Shown piece after piece: positions 3,300 through 49,852 of a stretch of DNA of 64,000 bases. The position numbers and the translations under genes are program-made. This DNA is from Candidatus Omnitrophota bacterium (lineage in GTDB: Bacteria; Omnitrophota; Gorgyraeia; Duberdicusellales; 4484-171), in the NCBI GenBank assembly GCA_041652815.1, contig JBAZGN010000001.1:637855-701854 (forward strand). The letters run 5' to 3'. Numbering within the stretch: position 1 is the first letter of the stretch; each line of letters opens with the position of its first letter. The notes beneath the pieces were generated by a model, which did no database searches, was not told the origin of the DNA, and saw only the letters and a list, made by a program, of their open reading frames with translations.

Positions 3300-3524
3300 A
3301 AAACATGGAGAAATCTATATTGATAAGGGCAAACTATCCGAAAGGATAGGGCGCAACCCACGAACCAGAACGAAGTTCGGTTCGGGGTTGCCCGGAACCG
3401 AACTAGGTTCTGGTTCCGGGCAAAGCTCTAAGAGCCTAAAGCCGTAAGGCTATGGTAGTCAGCTGCCGATGTAGTAAAAAGAGTTTAAAACCCATAGTCA
3501 TTAATAAGGCTATGGGTTTTTTTA
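3300..3524 (+). ncRNA. Candidate structured non-coding RNA of unknown class, ending in an intrinsic terminator.
   Basis: A 10-bp perfect hairpin GCCCGGAACC...GGTTCCGGGC. Competing pairings CGAACCAGAAC/GTTCTGGTTCCG. Ends with the hairpin AAAACCCATAG...CTATGGGTTTTTTT. No ORF. Confidence 0.25.
3487..3524 (+). terminator. Rho-independent terminator (hairpin CCCATAG/CTATGGG followed by T7).
   Basis: Seen directly: aaaacccatagtcattaataaggctatgggttttttt. Confidence 0.6.
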
Positions 3525-3773: not shown

Positions 3774-3788
3774 TTGAAGGAGGTGTCT

Positions 3789-4130
3789 ATGTTAAGGAAA
3801 ACCGTGGTTATGTTGCTTGTAAGTTTCATGGCAATATCCGTGGTGGCATTTGCTGAAGACCACAATGCACTTACCAAATTAGGCAGAGGCTTAGCTAACG
3901 CAGTTACCGGTATAGTAGAGGTTCCTAAGCAAATATACCTTGTTTCTAAGGAAAGAGAGCCTATTACAGGTATAACCTATGGTACGGCAAAAGGTATATG
4001 CTACGGGTTATTGCGTACAGGAGCAGGAGTTTACGACTCAGTAACATTCCCAATACCTCCTTACGATAAACCGATTATGGAACCTGAATATGCATTTGAA
4101 GGTTGGCAGCCTGAATCCGCAGAAAAATAA
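3789..4130 (+). CDS. Hypothetical small exported protein (signal peptide).
   Basis: N-terminal MLRKTVVMLLVSFMAISVVAFA signal-like segment. Start chosen at the ATG 7 nt after GGAGG; the ORF track starts at 3774. Confidence 0.5.
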   Translation: MLRKTVVMLLVSFMAISVVAFAEDHNALTKLGRGLANAVTGIVEVPKQIYLVSKEREPITGITYGTAKGICYGLLRTGAGVYDSVTFPIPPYDKPIMEPEYAFEGWQPESAEK

Positions 4131-7461: not shown

Positions 7462-8550
7462 TTATTTGTGGAATAAAACCGATATTATGTTTTTGATAAG
7501 CCTTATGCTGTGCTTAACAATTCTTTTGTTAGAGAGAATTGTTGGATGCCACCATTGAGGTTCATTGGTACAGAAGCAGTTATCAGATAAATCTTTCCTG
7601 ATTCTCTTCGCCTTGTCCGAATTCCATATTTTCTTAAAATCATAATTAGATTCTCTAAGGCTACCGAAAGGCATGGTATGTTCACAAGCCCCAACCAGGC
7701 CTTCGTTGTCAATAAACCCGCCCGCGATGCCGGCATAACAGGCGCCCTGTCGCTTATTCTGAGTTATGATTTTATATATATAGTCATACATCATAATTGT
7801 TCCGATTTTAATCGTAAGGTCAGTTTCAAATTTTCCTTTTAACATGTCCGCAACATAAATTTTAGTCCACTCTTTGTAAATATTTAATTTTAAATTACGC
7901 TTACAATTAGGATCTCTAGGTATGTCTCTTACCAAAAGCTGCGCCAAACAGTCGGGCCGCGGCTTTAGATTGTAAAAGTATTTATAAATCTCAAATATTT
8001 TATCCTGATTAAAAGCCGAAAATACAGTGTTAATTCCGACTTTAAGATTTTTGTATTTGTTTTTAAGGTTCATTAATAATTGGTAAGTTTCAATTGCCCT
8101 CAAGAATGCTCCGGGAGTGTCGCGGATTTTATCATGTTTATCCGAAATAGCATCAATTGAAACTTTAACAATTAAATGAACAGCTGGATGGTATTTTAAA
8201 AAATTATCTATCGTCGTAATTGTATTATCGATTAATTGCCCATTAGTAGAAATATTAAACGTTTTTGGCCTGGAGAATTCATAAATATTTTGCAATATTT
8301 CACAGAAATCTTTTCTAATAAAAGGTTCTCCCCCGGATAAATAGAGATAATCAATCGGGCCTAAACTATGGAAAATTTGTTTTATTTCCTCAGTAGTTAA
8401 GTCCAACTTTTTACTATTGCCTATTGCACCTTTCGGATTAGTATCGAACCAATTAAAACAATGTTTACAGCGGCAAACACATTGGTTAGTGACGAGGAAA
8501 GAAATTATTCGAGGAAGATTTTCTTTATGGGTATATTTTTTTATTTTCAC
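7462..8550 (-). CDS. Radical SAM enzyme with a C-terminal SPASM/twitch-like Cys cluster.
   Basis: CxxxCxxC (CVCRCKHC within NQCVCRCKHCF), GGEP SAM-binding motif, C-terminal C-x17-C (GxxxxC) ... CFC cysteines. Confidence 0.65.
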   Translation of the reverse strand: MKIKKYTHKENLPRIISFLVTNQCVCRCKHCFNWFDTNPKGAIGNSKKLDLTTEEIKQIFHSLGPIDYLYLSGGEPFIRKDFCEILQNIYEFSRPKTFNISTNGQLIDNTITTIDNFLKYHPAVHLIVKVSIDAISDKHDKIRDTPGAFLRAIETYQLLMNLKNKYKNLKVGINTVFSAFNQDKIFEIYKYFYNLKPRPDCLAQLLVRDIPRDPNCKRNLKLNIYKEWTKIYVADMLKGKFETDLTIKIGTIMMYDYIYKIITQNKRQGACYAGIAGGFIDNEGLVGACEHTMPFGSLRESNYDFKKIWNSDKAKRIRKDLSDNCFCTNEPQWWHPTILSNKRIVKHSIRLIKNIISVLFHK

Positions 8551-8585
8551 CTGAGGTTTAACATTGGGCGAATTCGGGCATACCG

Positions 8586-8963
8586 CTACTGATTTTCTTT
8601 TGAATATTGTTCAATAGCTTCAAGAACCTTCTGTGCATCTGCTTTTCCGGCATCGCTTGTTCCAACGCGCACAGATATTTTTGATTCGTTATCGCTAATT
8701 CTAAAAATCTCTATATACATAGTTTTTTCATTCGTGTATTTTCCTTTTACTACTGCAATATCCGGTTTGACGATTGCTTCTTCGAACTCCAGATTTAAGG
8801 AAATCAACGTTTTTTTTACAATTTCCAATGCTTTCGCATAAGGAACATTAAAATCTTGCTTTGCTTTCTGAGTTTCTCTCATGCTTGCGGCAACAAAGAT
8901 ACAGCCGGAAAAACTGATGATTATAGTTCCAAGGATAAAATTTATTAATAATTTTTTTAACAT
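8586..8963 (-). CDS. Hypothetical lipoprotein.
   Basis: Signal peptide with a lipobox-like FSGC. Confidence 0.45.
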   Translation of the reverse strand: MLKKLLINFILGTIIISFSGCIFVAASMRETQKAKQDFNVPYAKALEIVKKTLISLNLEFEEAIVKPDIAVVKGKYTNEKTMYIEIFRISDNESKISVRVGTSDAGKADAQKVLEAIEQYSKENQ

Positions 8964-9024: not shown

Positions 9025-9070
9025 TTTTATCTGTGATCATCTGTGTCTGTCTATCTGTGATTATCTGTGT
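9025..9070. repeat. Family-1 ATCTGTG iterons upstream of the lipoprotein/rSAM/helicase operon.
   Basis: ttatctgtgatcatctgtgtctgtctatctgtgattatctgtg. Confidence 0.55.
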
Positions 9071-9084
9071 AAAAAATAAAAACA

Positions 9085-9264
9085 TGCCGGAGGAGGCTTG
9101 TCCGCCGAAGCCCTACCAGCTATAGCAGAGTGAAGGGCGTAGGCGGAGAGTTGTATGTAGTGTTTGCCGTAAGGCAAACTTTCTTTTCACTACATCCAAC
9201 ATTGCCCATCAAACAACCCTAAATTATTCATTGGCGCTGAAAATGTCACAAAAAATATGAAAAC
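9085..9264 (-). other. tRNA-linked structured module D, downstream of tRNA-Leu(CAA) on the minus strand. It ends in a copy of the tRNA 3' terminal 12 nt (CCTCCTCCGGCA).
   Basis: Minus-strand core GGATGTAGTG-AAAAGAAAG-GTTTGCC-TTAC-GGCAAAC-CACTACATAC-AACTCTCC. TGCCGGAGGAGG recurs at 9085-9096 and at the tRNA 3' end. Confidence 0.55.
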
Positions 9265-9348
9265 TGCCGGAGGAGGGAGTTGAACCCACACCTCCTTGCG
9301 GAGACGGGATTTTGAGTCCCGCGCGTCTGCCAGTTTCACCACTCCGGC
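9265..9348 (-). tRNA. tRNA-Leu (anticodon CAA), type II with a long variable arm; CCA not encoded.
   Basis: Acceptor GCCGGAG/CTCCGGC, anticodon loop CUCAAAA, variable arm TCTCCGCAAGGAGGTG, T-loop GGTTCAACTCC. Confidence 0.88.
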
Positions 9349-9715
9349 TTTGTTAGCTTTTCATCGAGAACATTGTTAGAAATATAACCTTTGTCTTTTT
9401 CCCATACAGCTTAATGGTGGAAACGACTTTTGGAGAAACTTGCTTCGCAAGGTCGTTTACACCACTCCGGCTTTGTTAGCTTTTCATCGAGAACATTGTT
9501 AGAAATATAACCTTTGTCTTTTTCCCATACAGTGTAATGGTGGAAACGACTTTTGGAGAAACTTGCTTCGCAAGGTCGTTTACACCACTCCGGCTTTGTT
9601 AGCTTTTCATCGAGAACATTGTTAGAAATATAACCTTTGTCTTTTTCCCATACAGTGTAATGGTGGAAACGACTTTTGGAGAAACTTGCTTCGCAAGGTC
9701 GTTTACACCACTCCG
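9346..9715. repeat. Perfect tandem array, 3 x 123 bp, abutting the 5' end of tRNA-Leu(CAA). Each unit starts (tRNA sense) with the tRNA's first 12 nt, GCCGGAGTGGTG.
   Basis: Unit starts at 9352, 9475 and 9598. The only internal difference is CAGCTTAATGG vs CAGTGTAATGG. Each unit holds the hairpin GGTGTAAACGAC...GTCGTTTCCACC enclosing CTTGC-GAA-GCAAG. Confidence 0.8.
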
Positions 9716-9829
9716 ACATAATGGCAGAGAACAAACTATTAAGTAGGGTAAAATCTTAACATTACAGGATTTCTTTGTCAACCCATTCGAATTCTTCAAA
9801 GTTGGCAAAGAGCGAAGCCGAATGCGTCA

Positions 9830-10047: not shown

Positions 10048-11562
10048 ATGAAAGTATATTTAGCTGGTTTTAATGTAGATACGGCAGTTTTAAAAGAGTT
10101 AGAGCAAACTGCAGGTAAACGAGAAGACTTAACTCCAGAAGTGCTATCTGCCGCTTACGCCCGCATCAGCCGCGACCCGCGGCCGATAAATGAAATCAGG
10201 AATGAAGCCAAAAAGGAAGTAGAGCGCAGCCGTAAATCCAATGAAACCATTATTTTTAAAATGGGGCATCATTCTGTGGCAGAGCACGCGGTATTTAATT
10301 TCGATATTTTAGGAGTATCGCGTTTTGCGATGGAGGAAGCCGAGAAATTCAGGCTTTGCTCATATACTGAAAAATCACAGCGTTATATTACTCTTGATAA
10401 GGATTTTGTAATTCCGCAGGAAATAAAAGGCACTCCGCTAGAAGGCCGTTTTGTAAAAATGGTGCAACTCCAGAATGAAGCATATTTTAAGCTTTTTGAA
10501 AAATTAAAAGATTATGTATTTAAGAAACATGAGAAATTAGCAGCTGATCCTAAAAAGCATAATTTACTTGAAGGCTTCGCAAAAGAAGACGCACGTTATA
10601 TTACTTCGTTAGCAACCGAGTCTCAAGTGGGCGTAACCGTTAATGCGCGTATTCTGGAGCTTATGTTACGAAGATTTGCTTCGCACCCTTTGGCCGAAGT
10701 AAAAAAACTGGGTAAATCTATCTATGAACAGGTTAATCCTATTGCGCCTTCAATTGTAATTTTTCGCGAAGCAAATGACCGCGACTTAAAAACCTATCCT
10801 GAATTAAAAGAAACCCTCAAAGAGTTTATCAAAAAAACCAAAAAACCAGCCTCAAAGAAAGGCATAAAAGAAGTAGAATTGGTTGAGTTTCCCAAGGAAG
10901 GCGACAAATTGATTTTAGCGGCACTTTTGCATACTTTTGATAATTTGTCCTATGAACAGTGTAAAAGTATCGCCGCCAGGTTGAATAAAGAGCAGAGCAA
11001 AAAGATATTTAAAACTTCCTGGCAAAACATGCAATTTTACGATTCGATGTTACGTGAATTTGAATATGTAAACTTAACTTTTAATATTATTTTATCTGCA
11101 GCCTGCTTTGGCCAGTTGAAGCGCCACCGTATGAGTACAATTACAACCCAAGCCTACGACCCTAATTTAGGCATTACAATTCCAGAATCTATCAAAGAAA
11201 CAGGAATGGAAAAATATTTCAAAGAAATTGTGGATAAGACCAATGAGGTTTATGCTGCTATTAATAAAGAAACTCCATTAGCCGCGCCTTATATTTTAAC
11301 TAATGCTCACAGGCGGCGGGTTTTAATGCGTCTTAATCTTCGCGAACTCTATCATATATCCAGGCTTCGTGAAGATGCGCACGCGCAGTGGGATATCCAG
11401 AACATTTCACATTTGATGAGCAAGGAAGTAAAGAGAATAATGCCGCTTGCGAGCAGCTTGCTTTGCGGGAAAGACAAATACAACGAAACTTATCAAAATA
11501 TATTCGGGCATCTGCCTAAAGTAGTGCAAGCAAGCTTACCTGGCGCACGCAGAATAAAATGA
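10048..11562 (+). CDS. thyX: FAD-dependent thymidylate synthase ThyX, long (tandem-domain) form.
   Basis: First half carries SxxxSQRY (SYTEKSQRY) with no RHR. Second half carries RHR (LKRHRMST) with no SQRY. The two ThyX signature halves are split across a duplicated fold. Confidence 0.5.
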   Translation: MKVYLAGFNVDTAVLKELEQTAGKREDLTPEVLSAAYARISRDPRPINEIRNEAKKEVERSRKSNETIIFKMGHHSVAEHAVFNFDILGVSRFAMEEAEKFRLCSYTEKSQRYITLDKDFVIPQEIKGTPLEGRFVKMVQLQNEAYFKLFEKLKDYVFKKHEKLAADPKKHNLLEGFAKEDARYITSLATESQVGVTVNARILELMLRRFASHPLAEVKKLGKSIYEQVNPIAPSIVIFREANDRDLKTYPELKETLKEFIKKTKKPASKKGIKEVELVEFPKEGDKLILAALLHTFDNLSYEQCKSIAARLNKEQSKKIFKTSWQNMQFYDSMLREFEYVNLTFNIILSAACFGQLKRHRMSTITTQAYDPNLGITIPESIKETGMEKYFKEIVDKTNEVYAAINKETPLAAPYILTNAHRRRVLMRLNLRELYHISRLREDAHAQWDIQNISHLMSKEVKRIMPLASSLLCGKDKYNETYQNIFGHLPKVVQASLPGARRIK

Positions 11563-15193: not shown

Positions 15194-15565
15194 ATGTTTT
15201 CCTTAACCCCCCGTGAACGCAAAGTCCTTGTTTTTTTAGGTATTTTGATTTTTTGCGGAGCAGTTTTGCGTTTTTTAAACGTAAAAATAAATGAGCAGTC
15301 GAATAATCCTTCTGCAATATCGACTGCTCATCCTGAAGCCCAGAGGGCTGAAGGATCTAAAGCCTTTCCGATAAACATCAATACCGCAAATTTAACAGAT
15401 TTGGAAAAAATACCCGGCATAGGGCCAGCAATTGCAAACCGCATAATTGAATACCGTAAAACCTATGGAAATTTTTCTTCTCTTGATGATTTAAGGAAAG
15501 TTAAAGGAATAGGGGACAAGAAGCTTAAGATGATGAAGAATTGCATAGTATTAGATAATAAATAA
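15194..15565 (+). CDS. comEA: Competence protein ComEA (helix-hairpin-helix DNA binding).
   Basis: N-terminal TM segment, then tandem HhH (LEKIPGIGPAIANRIIEYR ... LRKVKGIGDKKL). Confidence 0.7.
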   Translation: MFSLTPRERKVLVFLGILIFCGAVLRFLNVKINEQSNNPSAISTAHPEAQRAEGSKAFPININTANLTDLEKIPGIGPAIANRIIEYRKTYGNFSSLDDLRKVKGIGDKKLKMMKNCIVLDNK

Positions 15566-15712
15566 CCAAGCTCCAATTTCCAATAACCAAATAATGACCA
15601 AGAACCAAATTCCAATAGCCAAAGAAGAAATCAACAGAATTGTTTGATGATTGGTTATTGGGTATTGGAATTTGCTTGGAGCTTGTATCTTGGTTATTGG
15701 TTATTTTATGTT
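15566..15712. repeat. Family-8 palindrome (CCAAGCTCCAATTTCCAATAACCAA ... TTGGTTATTGGGTATTGGAATTTGCTTGGAGCTTG) between comEA and comEC.
   Basis: Arms of about 35 nt with an approx. 50-nt spacer; the right arm overlaps the annotated comEC start. Confidence 0.5.
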
Positions 15713-17147
15713 TAGAAAAATATTTTCTCCCGCCTTGTTCAACTTCTGGCTGTTTATAGCTTTTGCTCTGGGAATAATAACCGGGTTTTATTTTCCTTCT
15801 TTTTTGGTATTTGCGCTGCTATTTATTTTTTCTGTAAGCCTAATCTTTATTTTTTCCCACCGCCAGAAATTTTTGTTTTCAGATATTTTTATAATGATTT
15901 TGTTTTTATCTTTAGGTGCATTATGGTACTTGCCATTTAGCTGCCAGAATATAGATAACTTTTTAGGAAAAGGAGAGACTTTTGTTTTAAAAGTATCTTC
16001 CCTGCCGAAAGAAAATATTTCCAGGAATACTTTTCTTGCTGATATAAAAAAGATTAATGATAATCGTATAACTCAAAGAGCCAGGGTCATTGATTACTCA
16101 AAAGAGATGGCCTATTTAAATGATTATGAGGCTAAAGCTCGGCTTTCCAAAGTAACAATCAGAAATATGGATTTTTATACACTTTGGGTAAAATCAAATC
16201 CCGTTCCAAAAAAATTATCTATTAGCCTATTGGATAAATTTAACCGCAAAATGACTTACCGGCTTTTAAGTATTTTAAAAACTAATCTTACTGATGAAAG
16301 TTACAGATTTATTGCTTCGGTATTTCTGGGCAGGCGTGAACTGTTAAGTAAAGAAGAGAAGGATGCTTTTACTAATGCCGGAATTTCTCATTTACTTGCG
16401 ATAAGTGGTTCAAACATAGGTTTAACTGCTTTAGTTTTGTTTTTTATCTTTAAGCTGTTTAATATTAAATTCAGAATATGCCTGATCCTGTCAGTATTCT
16501 TTCTATTTGTTTATACATTGATAACCGGAGCAAATCCGCCTACACTGCGGGCAGTGATTATGTATACTGCATTTTCCCTAAGTTTTTTTGTGAAAAGAAA
16601 ATTAAATCCGTTTAATTCACTTGGTTCGGCTGGCCTTGTTTGTTTGGTTGTAAACCCTTTATGGCTATTTGATGTAGGCTTCCAGTTGTCTTTTCTTTCC
16701 ATATTTTCTCTCATTCTGGGGTTTAAAATGTTTCCCATAAAACAATCCAATGCAGGATTCTTCAACCAGCTGCAATATCTTTTCTTTTCTTCGCTATATG
16801 TAACATTGCTGATTACGCCGCTGGTTTCCTATTATTTTGGAAGGGTGTACATATTAAGTGTTTTGAACAATATAATACTCATCCCGTTTTTTACGCTCAT
16901 TCTCATTGTTAATTTTACACTGCTTGTTTTTTCTCCTTTAAAATTTATAGCCCAACCGATAGCTGCGGCACTGTCTACGCTTATTCCTTTATTTTATAAA
17001 GTTTCCCAGCTGCTAGGCTCAATTAAGTTTTCATTTATAACCTATAAATTTTCCATAGAAGTTGCCTTTATCTATTACATTGCAATTGCCGGTTTTATTA
17101 TTTTATTGAAGATATTGCCGCAAAAACGCACCCTGCAAATGGTTTGA
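15651..17147 (+). CDS. comEC: ComEC/Rec2-family competence membrane protein, short form without a metallo-beta-lactamase domain. The true start may be the internal ATG near 15708.
   Basis: Polytopic membrane protein with a competence-domain motif (ISHLLAISGSNIG). Confidence 0.55.
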   Translation: MVIGYWNLLGACILVIGYFMFRKIFSPALFNFWLFIAFALGIITGFYFPSFLVFALLFIFSVSLIFIFSHRQKFLFSDIFIMILFLSLGALWYLPFSCQNIDNFLGKGETFVLKVSSLPKENISRNTFLADIKKINDNRITQRARVIDYSKEMAYLNDYEAKARLSKVTIRNMDFYTLWVKSNPVPKKLSISLLDKFNRKMTYRLLSILKTNLTDESYRFIASVFLGRRELLSKEEKDAFTNAGISHLLAISGSNIGLTALVLFFIFKLFNIKFRICLILSVFFLFVYTLITGANPPTLRAVIMYTAFSLSFFVKRKLNPFNSLGSAGLVCLVVNPLWLFDVGFQLSFLSIFSLILGFKMFPIKQSNAGFFNQLQYLFFSSLYVTLLITPLVSYYFGRVYILSVLNNIILIPFFTLILIVNFTLLVFSPLKFIAQPIAAALSTLIPLFYKVSQLLGSIKFSFITYKFSIEVAFIYYIAIAGFIILLKILPQKRTLQMV

Positions 17148-22627: not shown

Positions 22628-22718
22628 CTTTCAGCCTTCAGTCGTCAGCCTTCAGCCCCCCCAAGGGGTGCCCTTGAAGGGCAGCTGACAGCTGAGAGCT
22701 GACAGCTGAGAGCTGAAA
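22628..22718. repeat. Family-3 palindromic element, (CAGCCTTCAG)n - CCCCCCCAAGGGGTGCCCTTGAAGGGC - (AGCTGACAGCTGAG)n.
   Basis: Second copy in the opposite orientation at 42961-43050. Confidence 0.6.
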
Positions 22719-48850: not shown

Positions 48851-48958
48851 AACGCTAATTCCCGCTAATCTGTAATGCCAATATTTTATCAGGTACCTAG
48901 GCAATCTCGCCGAAGTACCGCGAAAAGATAAAGAATAATCCTGTATAATTGTTTTCGC

Positions 48959-49031
48959 GGGCCGCTAGCTCAGTTGGTAGAGCACCGCCCTTTTAAGGCG
49001 GGTGTGCCGAGTTCGACCCTCGGGCGGCTCA
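48959..49031 (+). tRNA. tRNA-Lys (anticodon UUU).
   Basis: Acceptor GGGCCGC/GCGGCTC, anticodon stem-loop CCGCC-CTTTTAA-GGCGG, T-arm CCGAG-TTCGACC-CTCGG; preceded by a TATAAT at 48938. Confidence 0.85.
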
Positions 49032-49095
49032 TAGATTTCAGGTTCTTTGAAAGTTTTGTCAGCAAAGAGACTTAGAGCTTTGTCTTAACATAATG

Positions 49096-49169
49096 GTCGG
49101 ATGCAATGGTGAAAAAAGCTCCGACTACCGTCGGAGATTGCATACGACCCTCGGGCGGCTCATAGATTT
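49096..49169 (+). other. tRNA-linked structured module A, downstream of tRNA-Lys. It ends with a 25-nt copy of the tRNA 3' end plus trailer (CGACCCTCGGGCGGCTCATAGATTT).
   Basis: GGATGCAAT-GGTGAAAAAAG-CTCCGAC-TACC-GTCGGAG-ATTGCATAC. Confidence 0.55.
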
Positions 49170-49223
49170 AAGTGTATTCGGAAATTTTGATAGAAAGGAG
49201 CTTGTTAGTAAGTGATTTCCGCC

Positions 49224-49304
49224 GCCGCGGTGGCGGAATTGGCATACGCGCATGGCTTAGGACCATGTCCCTTTGGGATGGGAGTTCAACTCTCCCCCGC
49301 GGCA
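49224..49304 (+). tRNA. tRNA-Leu (anticodon UAG), type II.
   Basis: Acceptor GCCGCGG/CCGCGGC, anticodon loop CUUAGGA, long variable arm, T-loop GGAGTTCAACTCTCC. Confidence 0.88.
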
Positions 49305-49365
49305 GTTTTTGCTTGTTCGAAAGGCTTTTTTAGCCTTTGATAATTCAGTTTTGTGCGGTAGCAGC

Positions 49366-49449
49366 GTTGGATGTAGTATAAGAAAGCTTCGCCTTGCGGC
49401 GAAGGCTACATACAATCTCTCCCGCGGCAGTTTTTGCTTGTTCGAAAGG
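49366..49449 (+). other. tRNA-linked structured module B, downstream of tRNA-Leu(UAG). It ends with a copy of the tRNA 3' end plus 20 nt of trailer (CTCTCCCGCGGCAGTTTTTGCTTGTTCGAAAGG).
   Basis: GTTGGATGTAGT-ATAAGAAAG-CTTCGCC-TTGC-GGCGAAG-GCTACATAC-AATCTCTCC. Confidence 0.55.
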
Positions 49450-49546
49450 AATAACCTTGTATAAGTGCTTTTTTTGCTCGTCTCGGATCTGTATCCTCGA
49501 CGCGCTGAAAAAACAAGGAAATAACCCTTTATAAATGCTTTTTTCA

Positions 49547-49620
49547 GCGGGTGTAGCTCAACCGGCTAGAGCGTCACGTTGCCAACGTGAAGGTTGTGGG
49601 TTCAATTCCCATCGCCCGCT
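49547..49620 (+). tRNA. tRNA-Gly (anticodon GCC).
   Basis: Acceptor GCGGGTG/CGCCCGC, anticodon stem-loop CACGT-TGCCAAC-ACGTG, T-arm TGGG-TTCAATT-CCCA. Confidence 0.88.
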
Positions 49621-49683
49621 TATATCTATCGTGGTTGTTTGATAGCTTTGCGCTACGCACAATATGTTTTTTAGTATGATGCA

Positions 49684-49771
49684 GGTTGGGGAACAACTGG
49701 TTAAGAAGCTTTGCCTTCGGCAAAGAGTTGCTACCCATCGCCCGTTCCAAATTTCTGTGGCTACTTTGATA
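49684..49771 (+). other. tRNA-linked structured module C, downstream of tRNA-Gly. It ends with a copy of the tRNA 3' end and trailer (CCCATCGCCCG-TT ... TCTGTGGCTACTTTGATAG).
   Basis: GGTTGGGGAACAACTGG-TTAAGAAG-CTTTGCC-TTCG-GGCAAAG-AGTTGCTAC. Confidence 0.5.
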
Positions 49772-49852
49772 GTTATATATTAGGCAGAAAATGTTTCCTA
49801 TCCAGCATCTACTGGCAGCAAAGAGAAGAAACAATAACAAAGGATTTGAAAT

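Follow-up and report, generated by a model that had tools for sequence, protein, structure and literature searches.

Integrative elements that target transfer RNA (tRNA) genes rely on a tyrosine integrase, which recombines attP and attB sites with the crossover in the T-loop; a classification of these elements was reportedly given by Williams in 2002. Here we describe a family of small insertions in a 64,000-nt stretch of DNA from Candidatus Omnitrophota bacterium (GCA_041652815.1, contig JBAZGN010000001.1, 637,855-701,854 of the forward strand), which is called the window below. The window holds five tRNA genes (Lys, Leu-UAG, Gly, Leu-CAA and Ala), four of which carry insertions of 122-132 nt that rebuild the interrupted end of the tRNA, while no module of this kind adjoins tRNA-Ala in the window. 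Like the integrative elements, these units lie inside the tRNA gene with a preference for the T-loop, can form tandem stacks and supply a new gene end. The old end persists as a direct repeat, so that the gene is restored and the unit lies between attL/attR-like repeats of the tRNA end. Unlike them, units of this length have no room for a recombinase gene and contain no gene at all, possess a covarying three-helix hairpin with a target-complementary guide, and also insert antisense into the D-arm, where they replace the 5' end and the leader.

Further likenesses are found among mobile DNAs with hairpins. IS200/IS605 elements and their derivatives (PATE, REP/RAYT) are small and hairpin-bearing, lack inverted terminal repeats and read their site by pairing with a short internal guide at the foot of a hairpin; they are handled as single-stranded DNA, which is probable for the units as well. 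In IS608, however, the contacts between guide and cleavage site are partly non-canonical and a simple hairpin lies at each end, whereas the units have one composite hairpin and a canonical helix that spans the junction. Moreover, IS200/IS605 elements have a fixed 4-5-mer target per family and carry no gene end, in contrast to the target-specific guide and the long target-homologous left part of the units. Integron cassettes share with them an imperfect hairpin site (attC) known by its structure, a basal helix completed across the junction, the formation of arrays and a folded single-strand substrate. Yet the R box of attC (RYYYAAC/GTTRRRY, crossover G|TT) is not seen in the units, whose basal helices (GTCG/CGAC, TGGG/CCCA and others) vary with the tRNA loops, and cassettes have a partner site, attI, beside intI, while no intI, attI, Pc platform or open reading frame (ORF) was found at the units and no integrase near any locus examined. 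By analogy, the units would combine three themes: gene-restoring integration into tRNA genes, an internal guide of the IS200/IS605 type and an attC-like helix completed across the junction.

The anatomy of the unit is uniform. From the tRNA junction to the end of the module, the 16 elements at six insertion sites measure 122-132 nt; they represent one Omnitrophota clade and five guide/target pairs. L-numbers denote related Omnitrophota contigs or loci, all of them metagenome assemblies like the window. The first part of each unit is a substitute copy of the stretch of tRNA that lies outward of the insertion point, and continues into flanking sequence; the last part is a 52-57-nt hairpin. The carried segment is the tRNA 3' end with its trailer or, in antisense insertions, the 5' end with its leader, and the left part as a whole comprises 18-60 nt of target-homologous DNA akin to natural tRNA ends and trailers. 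The copy is identical to the gene end over 11-38 nt before the match fades, and similarity as a whole fades over 36-60 nt. For the Lys unit of the window, the left part matches the element-free Lys trailer of L059 at 33/45 positions, and the window's own displaced Lys trailer at a lower 28/43. At tRNA-Leu of L052 the element-side trailer is unrelated to the displaced trailer beyond the tRNA, the Gly unit of L054 sits ahead of an older insert of another kind, and antisense units leave 12-13 nt of the old 5' end. For these reasons the unit, as judged from the comparison of sequences, brings its own gene end and is not made by duplication on the spot. In-situ duplication of about 36-60 nt of target was rejected as a general rule, since several elements have unrelated trailers on their two sides. 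Newer units always adjoin the tRNA body. Hairpins in the left part are weak and not common to different elements. The units have no terminal inverted repeats, their direct repeats being long, of variable identity and element-borne, and no short fixed target-site duplication, features that set them apart from miniature inverted-repeat transposable elements derived from DDE transposons.

The hairpin module shows, in order, a guide of 4-5 nt, a G, helix P2 (7 bp), a purine-rich linker of 9-13 nt, helix P3 (5-7 bp, loop of 3-4 nt), the second strand of P2 (P2'), a spacer and the displaced gene end. The spacer before P2 is G in 14/14 variants, and that after P2' is A in 11 of the 14, otherwise G or T. 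A third and outermost helix, P1, joins the 4-5 nt 5' of the hairpin to the nucleotides with which the displaced tRNA segment begins. It had been missed in a preliminary description of this locus, made from the sequence of the window alone, which reported two helices; folding of the whole unit paired its first bases with a GTTGG before the module, and parsing of the 14 variants revealed P1. This GTTGG seems to be conserved but is not; it contributes to P1 by pairing with the first bases of the copy.

Helices P2 and P3 are Watson-Crick paired in 94/98 and 96/98 cases, respectively, with two to four pair types per position. In a model-based alignment 84.4% of the cells are paired, as compared with 66.7% in shuffles. 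Both partners vary in 14 of the 19 pairs, and none of 500 shuffles reached the observed covariation. Sliding the partners against each other reduces pairing to 32-47%. The three-helix fold is the minimum-energy structure of the single-stranded DNA in all five window variants (z -3.2 to -7.5), and orthologous elements differ by compensatory changes. On this comparative evidence, the hairpin structure is a selected one.

The guide covaries with the target. In the T-loops, GTCG faces CGAC at tRNA-Lys, GTTG faces CAAC at both tRNA-Leu genes and TGGG faces CCCA at tRNA-Gly; in the antisense D-arm sites, the pairs are GGTG/CACC for Leu(CAA) and GCGG/CCGC for Leu(UAG). All 20 positions of these five pairs are Watson-Crick, a score reached by only one of 120 permutations of guides and targets, namely the true one. 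The target reads TT|C at 6/6 sites, two of them antisense in the D-arm and one at the second TT of the Gly T-loop, while the pair of bases before the element's own copy is TA, TG or GG in 15/16 elements and the junction of module and copy reads (A/G)|C.

As the module lies on either strand of tRNA genes, the DNA target, rather than the tRNA transcript, underlies this rule. Selected RNA normally contains many G.U and few A.C pairs; the stems of the modules contain 2 G.T versus 3 A.C among 252 pair cells. Rfam has no family for the module (whole window at gathering thresholds; locus with E up to 10), the best match being CRISPR-DR57 at E = 5.8 and 14.7 bits against a threshold of 39 bits. The use of either strand, the near absence of G.T and the lack of an Rfam family argue for DNA rather than RNA. 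The compensatory changes that had been claimed for the hairpin are real, whereas the reading of the hairpin as an RNA structure is not supported.

Some features of the units nonetheless recall the guide RNAs of Cas12 and TnpB (CRISPR RNA, omega RNA), namely a structured module followed by target-identical 3' sequence and a T-rich motif 5' of the target; type V-K CRISPR transposons have tRNA-homing guides, and tRNA genes are likewise targeted here. The units could be genes for such RNAs, with the module as scaffold, the tRNA-derived 3' sequence as guide, TT as the adjacent motif and a protein that is probably nuclease-dead or coupled to a recombinase. This is improbable. The order of scaffold and guide, the presence of TT before the target but, in 15/16 elements, not before the own copy, and even the very weak CRISPR-DR57 match would agree with it, and the three elements of the Lys-Leu-Gly cluster would be co-transcribed with the tRNAs. 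However, similarity to the target fades without a fixed spacer length, the first 4-5 nt, which would be the seed, are sequestered in P1, the stems are DNA-like with hardly a wobble pair, and antisense copies would need promoters of their own. In addition, there is no effector gene nearby, and the supposed guide is the displaced end of the gene. Programmable target recognition by short, element-borne paired segments is also known from the bridge (seek) RNAs of IS110/IS1111 elements, and IS110-family transposases have been reported in Omnitrophota. Bridge RNAs are about 150-250 nt long, lie beside the recombinase gene and recognise target and donor, about a common core dinucleotide, by means of two internal loops. 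The units, in contrast, have a conserved purine-rich stretch as their sole internal loop, and none of the copies adjoins a recombinase gene.

The opposite strand of the module offers another perspective, as P3 and the complement of the linker score as an intrinsic terminator in 3/7 window copies. A structure selected by the host at tRNA loci (a one-directional terminator, an insulator or a processing signal) that spread by tandem duplication or unequal crossing-over would account for this, for the conservation of modules at orthologous sites and for a unit length near the tRNA gene spacing in empty clusters (119-134 nt). Such an origin has little probability, since many other variants have poor T-tracts and the terminator reading is silent on P1 and P2. 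Furthermore, it gives no account of a P1 that covaries with six insertion sites, of the TT|C rule, of the two orientations or of an element flanked by trailers that differ in lineage (L052), and the cores have no similarity to the cognate tRNAs (z about 0).

A covariance model trained on the 14 distinct module variants was run on about 210 kb of Omnitrophota DNA, comprising the window and about 146 kb of related loci. It matched 22 sites at 36-62 bits, all 22 of them adjoining tRNA genes (two each in L105 and L106), and found no match in 659 kb of unrelated contigs. The opposite strand of the sites scored at most 20 bits, and the module is therefore asymmetric. A loose descriptor search of the window yielded seven module copies, 7/7 at tRNA genes; the other 13 matches lacked the flanking GG..AC context, and shuffles predict 3-13. 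Pattern scans gave 17 matches in a metagenome collection, one of which was a true relative (L052), three listed matches in a genome collection, all due to chance, and no real match in a viral collection. BLAST of the module core against plasmids and phages found no match.

The descriptor search and the sequence itself bear out the four modules and stems originally reported for the window. The total, however, is seven, since three further copies lie antisense to tRNA-Leu(CAA). The copied tRNA ends were likewise largely as described, with 25 nt exact at Lys and 34 nt at 97% at Leu-UAG, whereas at Gly the exact part is 11 nt, followed by a diverged trailer. The displaced Lys copy continues at 80% over 56 nt, with about 74% identity after the exact 25 nt. 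Three details required correction: the inner loop at Gly has 3 nt instead of the four ascribed to every copy, the terminal "AC" of the module consists of the spacer A and the first base (C) of the copy, and the copy at Leu-CAA does not follow the module as one piece. There, the module is succeeded by 9 nt (CAACTCTCC), an unrelated palindromic insert of about 48 nt (~9097-9144) and then CCTCCTCCGGCA at 9085-9096; the same nested insert is present in the displaced tRNA-Leu-CAA 3' part of L105. The antisense units at this gene are inserted at GTTT|CACCAC in the D-arm and each carry the tRNA 5' part and leader, such that every module runs on into the tRNA 5' end in reverse complement (CACCACTCCGGC) and then into leader.

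The insert within the displaced Leu-CAA end represents a second small palindromic family (CCGCCTWCGCC..loop..GGCTTCGGCGGACAAGCC), which is found at ~9097-9144 (-) of the window, ~9352-9400 of L105 and ~1455-1500 of L064. In the window and L105 it is nested in the displaced tRNA-Leu-CAA 3' fragment, and a further copy belongs to an insertion that separates pyrH from frr in L064-66. In L060, the old tRNA-Leu remnant is broken up by a related GCCTGCCGGCAGGC palindrome. Just past the displaced tRNA-Leu-CAA 3' end, the window contains two 19-nt direct repeats (TATCTGTGATCATCTGTGT, 95% identical) at 9028-9070 (+).

The preliminary description had proposed, as its main interpretation, transcribed mimics of tRNA 3' halves or minihelices, serving as decoys or processing substrates. 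In its favour, the 3' end of a tRNA, in sense orientation, concludes four of the window copies, three of which lie within a tRNA operon. Nevertheless, this interpretation is very hard to sustain: it is contradicted by modules antisense to tRNA-Leu-CAA and tRNA-Leu-UAG, which are joined to the reverse complement of a tRNA 5' end and its leader, and the modules offer no partner strands for an acceptor/T minihelix. Neither a tRNA covariance model nor ARAGORN detected the modules.

Other candidates were considered and rejected. Unit length, a similarity by eye between linker and D-loop and the GG before P2 prompted the idea that module or unit is a degenerate tRNA copy, but alignments with cognate tRNAs were no better than with shuffles or non-cognate tRNAs (z about 0). 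A ribozyme, a primer-binding site of the retroviral type, a split tRNA, an integron R box, and dif or integration host factor (IHF) sites were dropped because no motif fits and because the copy includes the trailer of the gene rather than CCA.

Related genomes present the same sites in different states. The ribosome recycling factor of the window is 100% identical to a protein of a metagenome-assembled genome. The gene order frr, tRNA-Lys, tRNA-Leu, tRNA-Gly, ptsN is conserved, and the tRNA loci between frr and ptsN are empty in L031-L035 and L061-63, the tRNAs lying 46 nt apart in L031. All three elements (Lys, Leu, Gly) are present in L052 and the Gly element alone in L054. L059 has those at Leu and Gly and, reversed, another one within the tRNA-Leu(UAG) D-arm, and L066 combines a Lys element with a reversed Leu(UAG) element. 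L064 contains at least two tandem Lys units versus one in L066, although the two are identical at 1673/1673 aligned positions. L059 and L060 are 99.8% identical over 2.37 kb upstream, yet wholly different at tRNA-Leu, where L060 has another allele, another small insert and remains of the former gene. L105, the thyX of which is 88% identical in protein, bears both Leu(CAA) elements, with one antisense unit versus three in the window; the antisense module is identical at 46/50 positions and thyX at 81% of nucleotides. Tandem copy numbers are perhaps under-assembled in metagenomes, but the same structures recur in independent JGI, ENA and NCBI assemblies. Since the same sites exist in empty, occupied and multi-copy versions, the modules are insertions, and the differences within the pairs L064/L066 and L059/L060 show that the locus turns over on the time scale of strains. 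From these comparative data we infer that the units are mobile. Thus, of the interpretations offered earlier, that of small, non-autonomous, tRNA-targeting mobile elements is supported by the empty orthologous sites and by copy numbers that differ between otherwise 100% identical sequences, and a single segmental duplication was rightly rejected.

The same T-loop sites also carry unrelated small inserts in relatives, at 10929-11010 and 11189-11290 of L029, 3865-3945 of L054, 2562-2632 of L060 and 3789-4005 of L056. One such Leu insert comprises two CCGCC/GGCGG hairpins closed by AGTT/AACT across the junction, and 41-nt direct repeats occur in one such Lys insert of 236 nt. Replacement has affected the entire tRNA-Leu(UAG) allele of L029, L054 and L060; the old 3' end survives in all three, and the old 5' end in L060 also. 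L107 encodes, at 8208-8860 (-), a free-standing, two-motif ORF resembling LAGLIDADG homing endonucleases (Pfam LAGLIDADG_3, E = 4e-8). It lies 19 nt downstream of a different tRNA-Leu(CAA) allele, where the window has its T-loop unit, and L107 lacks the radical-SAM and DUF3568 genes that come after that unit in the window. This ORF hints at endonuclease-driven allele replacement at tRNA loci of the clade.

In view of the carried gene ends, the units could be miniature derivatives that consist of an att site only, a double-strand tyrosine integrase from elsewhere recombining an attP-like circle of about 125 bp with the tRNA gene; the hairpin would represent protein-binding palindromes and P1 the symmetry of the core. 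Restoration of the gene end, direct repeats from the T-loop, tandem arrays and identity blocks of varying length all suit this explanation, as do the unrelated inserts, some with 41-nt repeats, at the same tRNA sites (L056; L029/L054/L060). Omnitrophota reportedly often carry tyrosine recombinases (10.64898/2026.06.07.730766). We nevertheless judge it unlikely. No integrase is encoded near any copy, and a core site with inverted recombinase-binding arms was not found: the sequence left of the junction (..ATTGCATA, ..CTACATA) is not an inverted copy of the T-stem, unlike that of a core-type site. Arm and core sites evolve otherwise than three nested helices of free sequence, strict complementarity and a one-sided loop of 9-13 nt, and integrases of this kind do not typically insert antisense so as to replace the 5' end and promoter. 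The earlier contention that an att duplication is inadequate is borne out in that the covarying hairpin and the guide go beyond an ordinary integrase site; the duplication itself, however, resembles that at att sites, in that a new gene end comes with the element.

On balance, we lean towards regarding the units as non-autonomous, site-specific and target-restoring mobile DNA of 122-132 nt, which would choose its site by base pairing, fold as single-stranded DNA and depend on an enzyme acting in trans. The unit would be handled as a folded single strand, whose hairpin is closed by P1 pairing over the junction, be the unit joined end to end, circular or integrated. An enzyme acting in trans, possibly a transposase of the HUH/Y1 type or an integron-like tyrosine recombinase, would bind the hairpin and then cut and join at the boundary of P1 and P2. 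The guide would thereupon pair with a TT|C site of matching sequence, for which single-stranded DNA would be the easiest substrate. Because each insertion recreates the target in the tRNA, new units would enter beside the tRNA body and push older copies outward, giving rise to tandem arrays. Insertion into an essential gene would be harmless, since the unit supplies the replaced end, be it the trailer or the leader and presumably the promoter.

Several observations weigh against this reading. No candidate enzyme was found: Pfam matches of 20 window ORFs (1-30 kb) were to housekeeping families only, the annotated genes of syntenic loci are likewise housekeeping genes, no recombinase lies near any copy in relatives, and neither a Y1 HUH transposase TnpA nor a RAYT is encoded among these ORFs or at the syntenic loci. 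No excised circle or single-stranded intermediate was seen, and the left end lacks a consistent hairpin as in IS200/IS605. According to GC skew, the + strand is the lagging-strand template, and it bears the hairpin strand at 4/5 window loci; yet there is no clean strand bias, and the support from the lagging strand is weak because the Leu(CAA) T-loop unit and the antisense Leu-UAG unit of L059 lie off the + strand. This reading does not account for the uniform unit length, which comes near both twelve helical turns and the natural distance between tRNA genes, and an alternative phase (a core of about 65 nt plus a duplication of about 60 nt) fits some copies, namely Lys, Gly and the Leu-UAG copy of the window. 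Elements at orthologous sites in genomes that have diverged by about 12-19% could mean a retained host function. Finally, the sample comprises 16 elements with five guide/target pairs from a single clade, all in metagenome assemblies.

Coordinates of tRNA genes, units, modules and displaced gene ends in the window
Feature	Position	Strand	Details
tRNA-Leu(CAA)	9265..9348	-	targeted on both sides
Leu-CAA T-loop unit	9154..9282	-	129 nt
Leu-CAA T-loop module	9149..9201	-	GTTG-G-ATGTAGT..GTTTGCC ttac GGCAAAC-ACTACAT-A-CAAC
Displaced tRNA-Leu-CAA 3' part	9085..9153	-	two pieces, 9145-9153 and 9085-9096
Antisense Leu-CAA units	9337-9459, 9460-9582, 9583-9705	+	three tandem units of 123 nt, antisense to tRNA-Leu-CAA; 3.1 tandem repeats
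Antisense Leu-CAA modules	9415-9464, 9538-9587, 9661-9710	+	TGGTG-G-AAACGAC..CTTGC ttc GCAAG-GTCGTTT-A-CACCA
Displaced original tRNA-Leu-CAA 5' end	9706..9717	+	12-nt remnant, antisense: CACCACTCCGAC; unrelated DNA beyond
tRNA-Lys(UUU), target gene	48959..49031	+	insertion between T55 and C56 of T-loop (..GAGTT|CGACC..)
Lys unit	49014..49144	+	131 nt; 18-nt replacement tRNA 3' part, trailer-like DNA, short linker, guide, hairpin
Lys hairpin module	49095..49149	+	minimum free energy as single-stranded DNA -17.4 kcal/mol, z -7.5
Lys P1	49095-49099 with 49145-49149	+	GGTCG with CGACC; spacer G 49100, spacer A 49144
Lys P2	49101-49107 with 49137-49143	+	ATGCAAT; purine-rich linker 49108-49118
Lys P3	49119-49125 with 49130-49136	+	CTCCGAC
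Displaced original tRNA-Lys 3' part and trailer	49145..49200	+	exact part 49145-49169
tRNA-Leu(UAG), target gene	49224..49304	+	site ..GGAGTT|CAACTC..
Leu-UAG T-loop unit	49287..49412	+	126 nt
Leu-UAG module	49365..49417	+	P1 GTTG 49366-49369 with CAAT 49413-49416 (one G.T); spacer G 49370; P2 from 49371; P3 CTTCGCC/GGCGAAG
Displaced tRNA-Leu-UAG 3' part and 20-nt trailer	49413..49449	+	97% part 49416-49449
tRNA-Gly(GCC), target gene	49546..49621	+	insertion after second TT of T-loop (..TTCAATT|CCCATCG..)
Gly unit	49608..49733	+	126 nt
Gly module	49685..49739	+	P1 TGGG 49687-49690 with CCCA 49734-49737; spacer G 49691; P2 AACAACT/AGTTGCT (one A.C); P3 CTTTGCC/GGCAAAG
Displaced tRNA-Gly 3' part and diverged trailer	49734..49796	+	exact part 49734-49744

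Other features of the tRNA loci and of the window are recorded here in their own right. Promoter-like regions upstream of tRNA-Gly and tRNA-Lys (window 49508-49544 and 48917-48961; L059/L060 2254-2290) are bracketed by inverted repeats, CGCTGAAAAAA...TTTTTTCAGCG and CCGCGAAAA...TTTTCGCGG, each 3' arm of which runs into the first bases of the tRNA. The promoter-like cassette sits upstream of different tRNAs in different relatives, and part of it is duplicated at 49445-49474 and 49515-49544. At 3318-3402 (+) the window contains a cyclic di-GMP-I riboswitch aptamer (40.8 bits, above the Rfam gathering threshold) upstream of an ORF at 3774-4130 that has no Pfam match. Downstream of a uvrC-like ORF, a tandem repeat of CAGCTGA (five copies) follows a GC-rich hairpin at 22682-22716. 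ComEA-like (HHH_3) and ComEC (Competence) genes are located at 15194-17147, and natural DNA uptake is therefore plausible, which is relevant to the exchange of tRNA-locus alleles between strains.

Full-text literature searches did not reveal a description of such elements, which is weak negative evidence only; recent preprints on Omnitrophota mention IS110, tyrosine recombinases and other mobile DNA, and nothing like these units. It is possible, if doubtful, that they represent a new class of nucleic-acid-guided recombination, in which a cargo-free unit of about 125 nt with its own 4-5-nt guide and a trans-acting enzyme would use sites composed of TT|C and the complement of the guide, and would be retargeted by changing the guide together with the carried gene end. 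If so, they would form a natural, minimal and programmable insertion system distinct from IS200/IS605, integrons, bridge-RNA IS110 and CRISPR transposons. Otherwise, the units would belong within site-specific, target-restoring mobile DNA as an undescribed variant, a placement chosen because they match no known family's definition in full and no published description was found.

If the guide selects the site, the units would be among the smallest site-specific mobile units, their choice of target written in 4-5 nt of the element, and conceptual kin of the resetting of IS608 guides, of bridge RNAs and of attC folding. This leads to a testable prediction, according to which a new guide would specify a new target. 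For its host, the element would be a parasite that lives inside essential single-copy genes at no cost by bringing along the end that it replaces, even a promoter, and the units may help to account for the rapid turnover of alleles and for the scars at tRNA loci of Omnitrophota.

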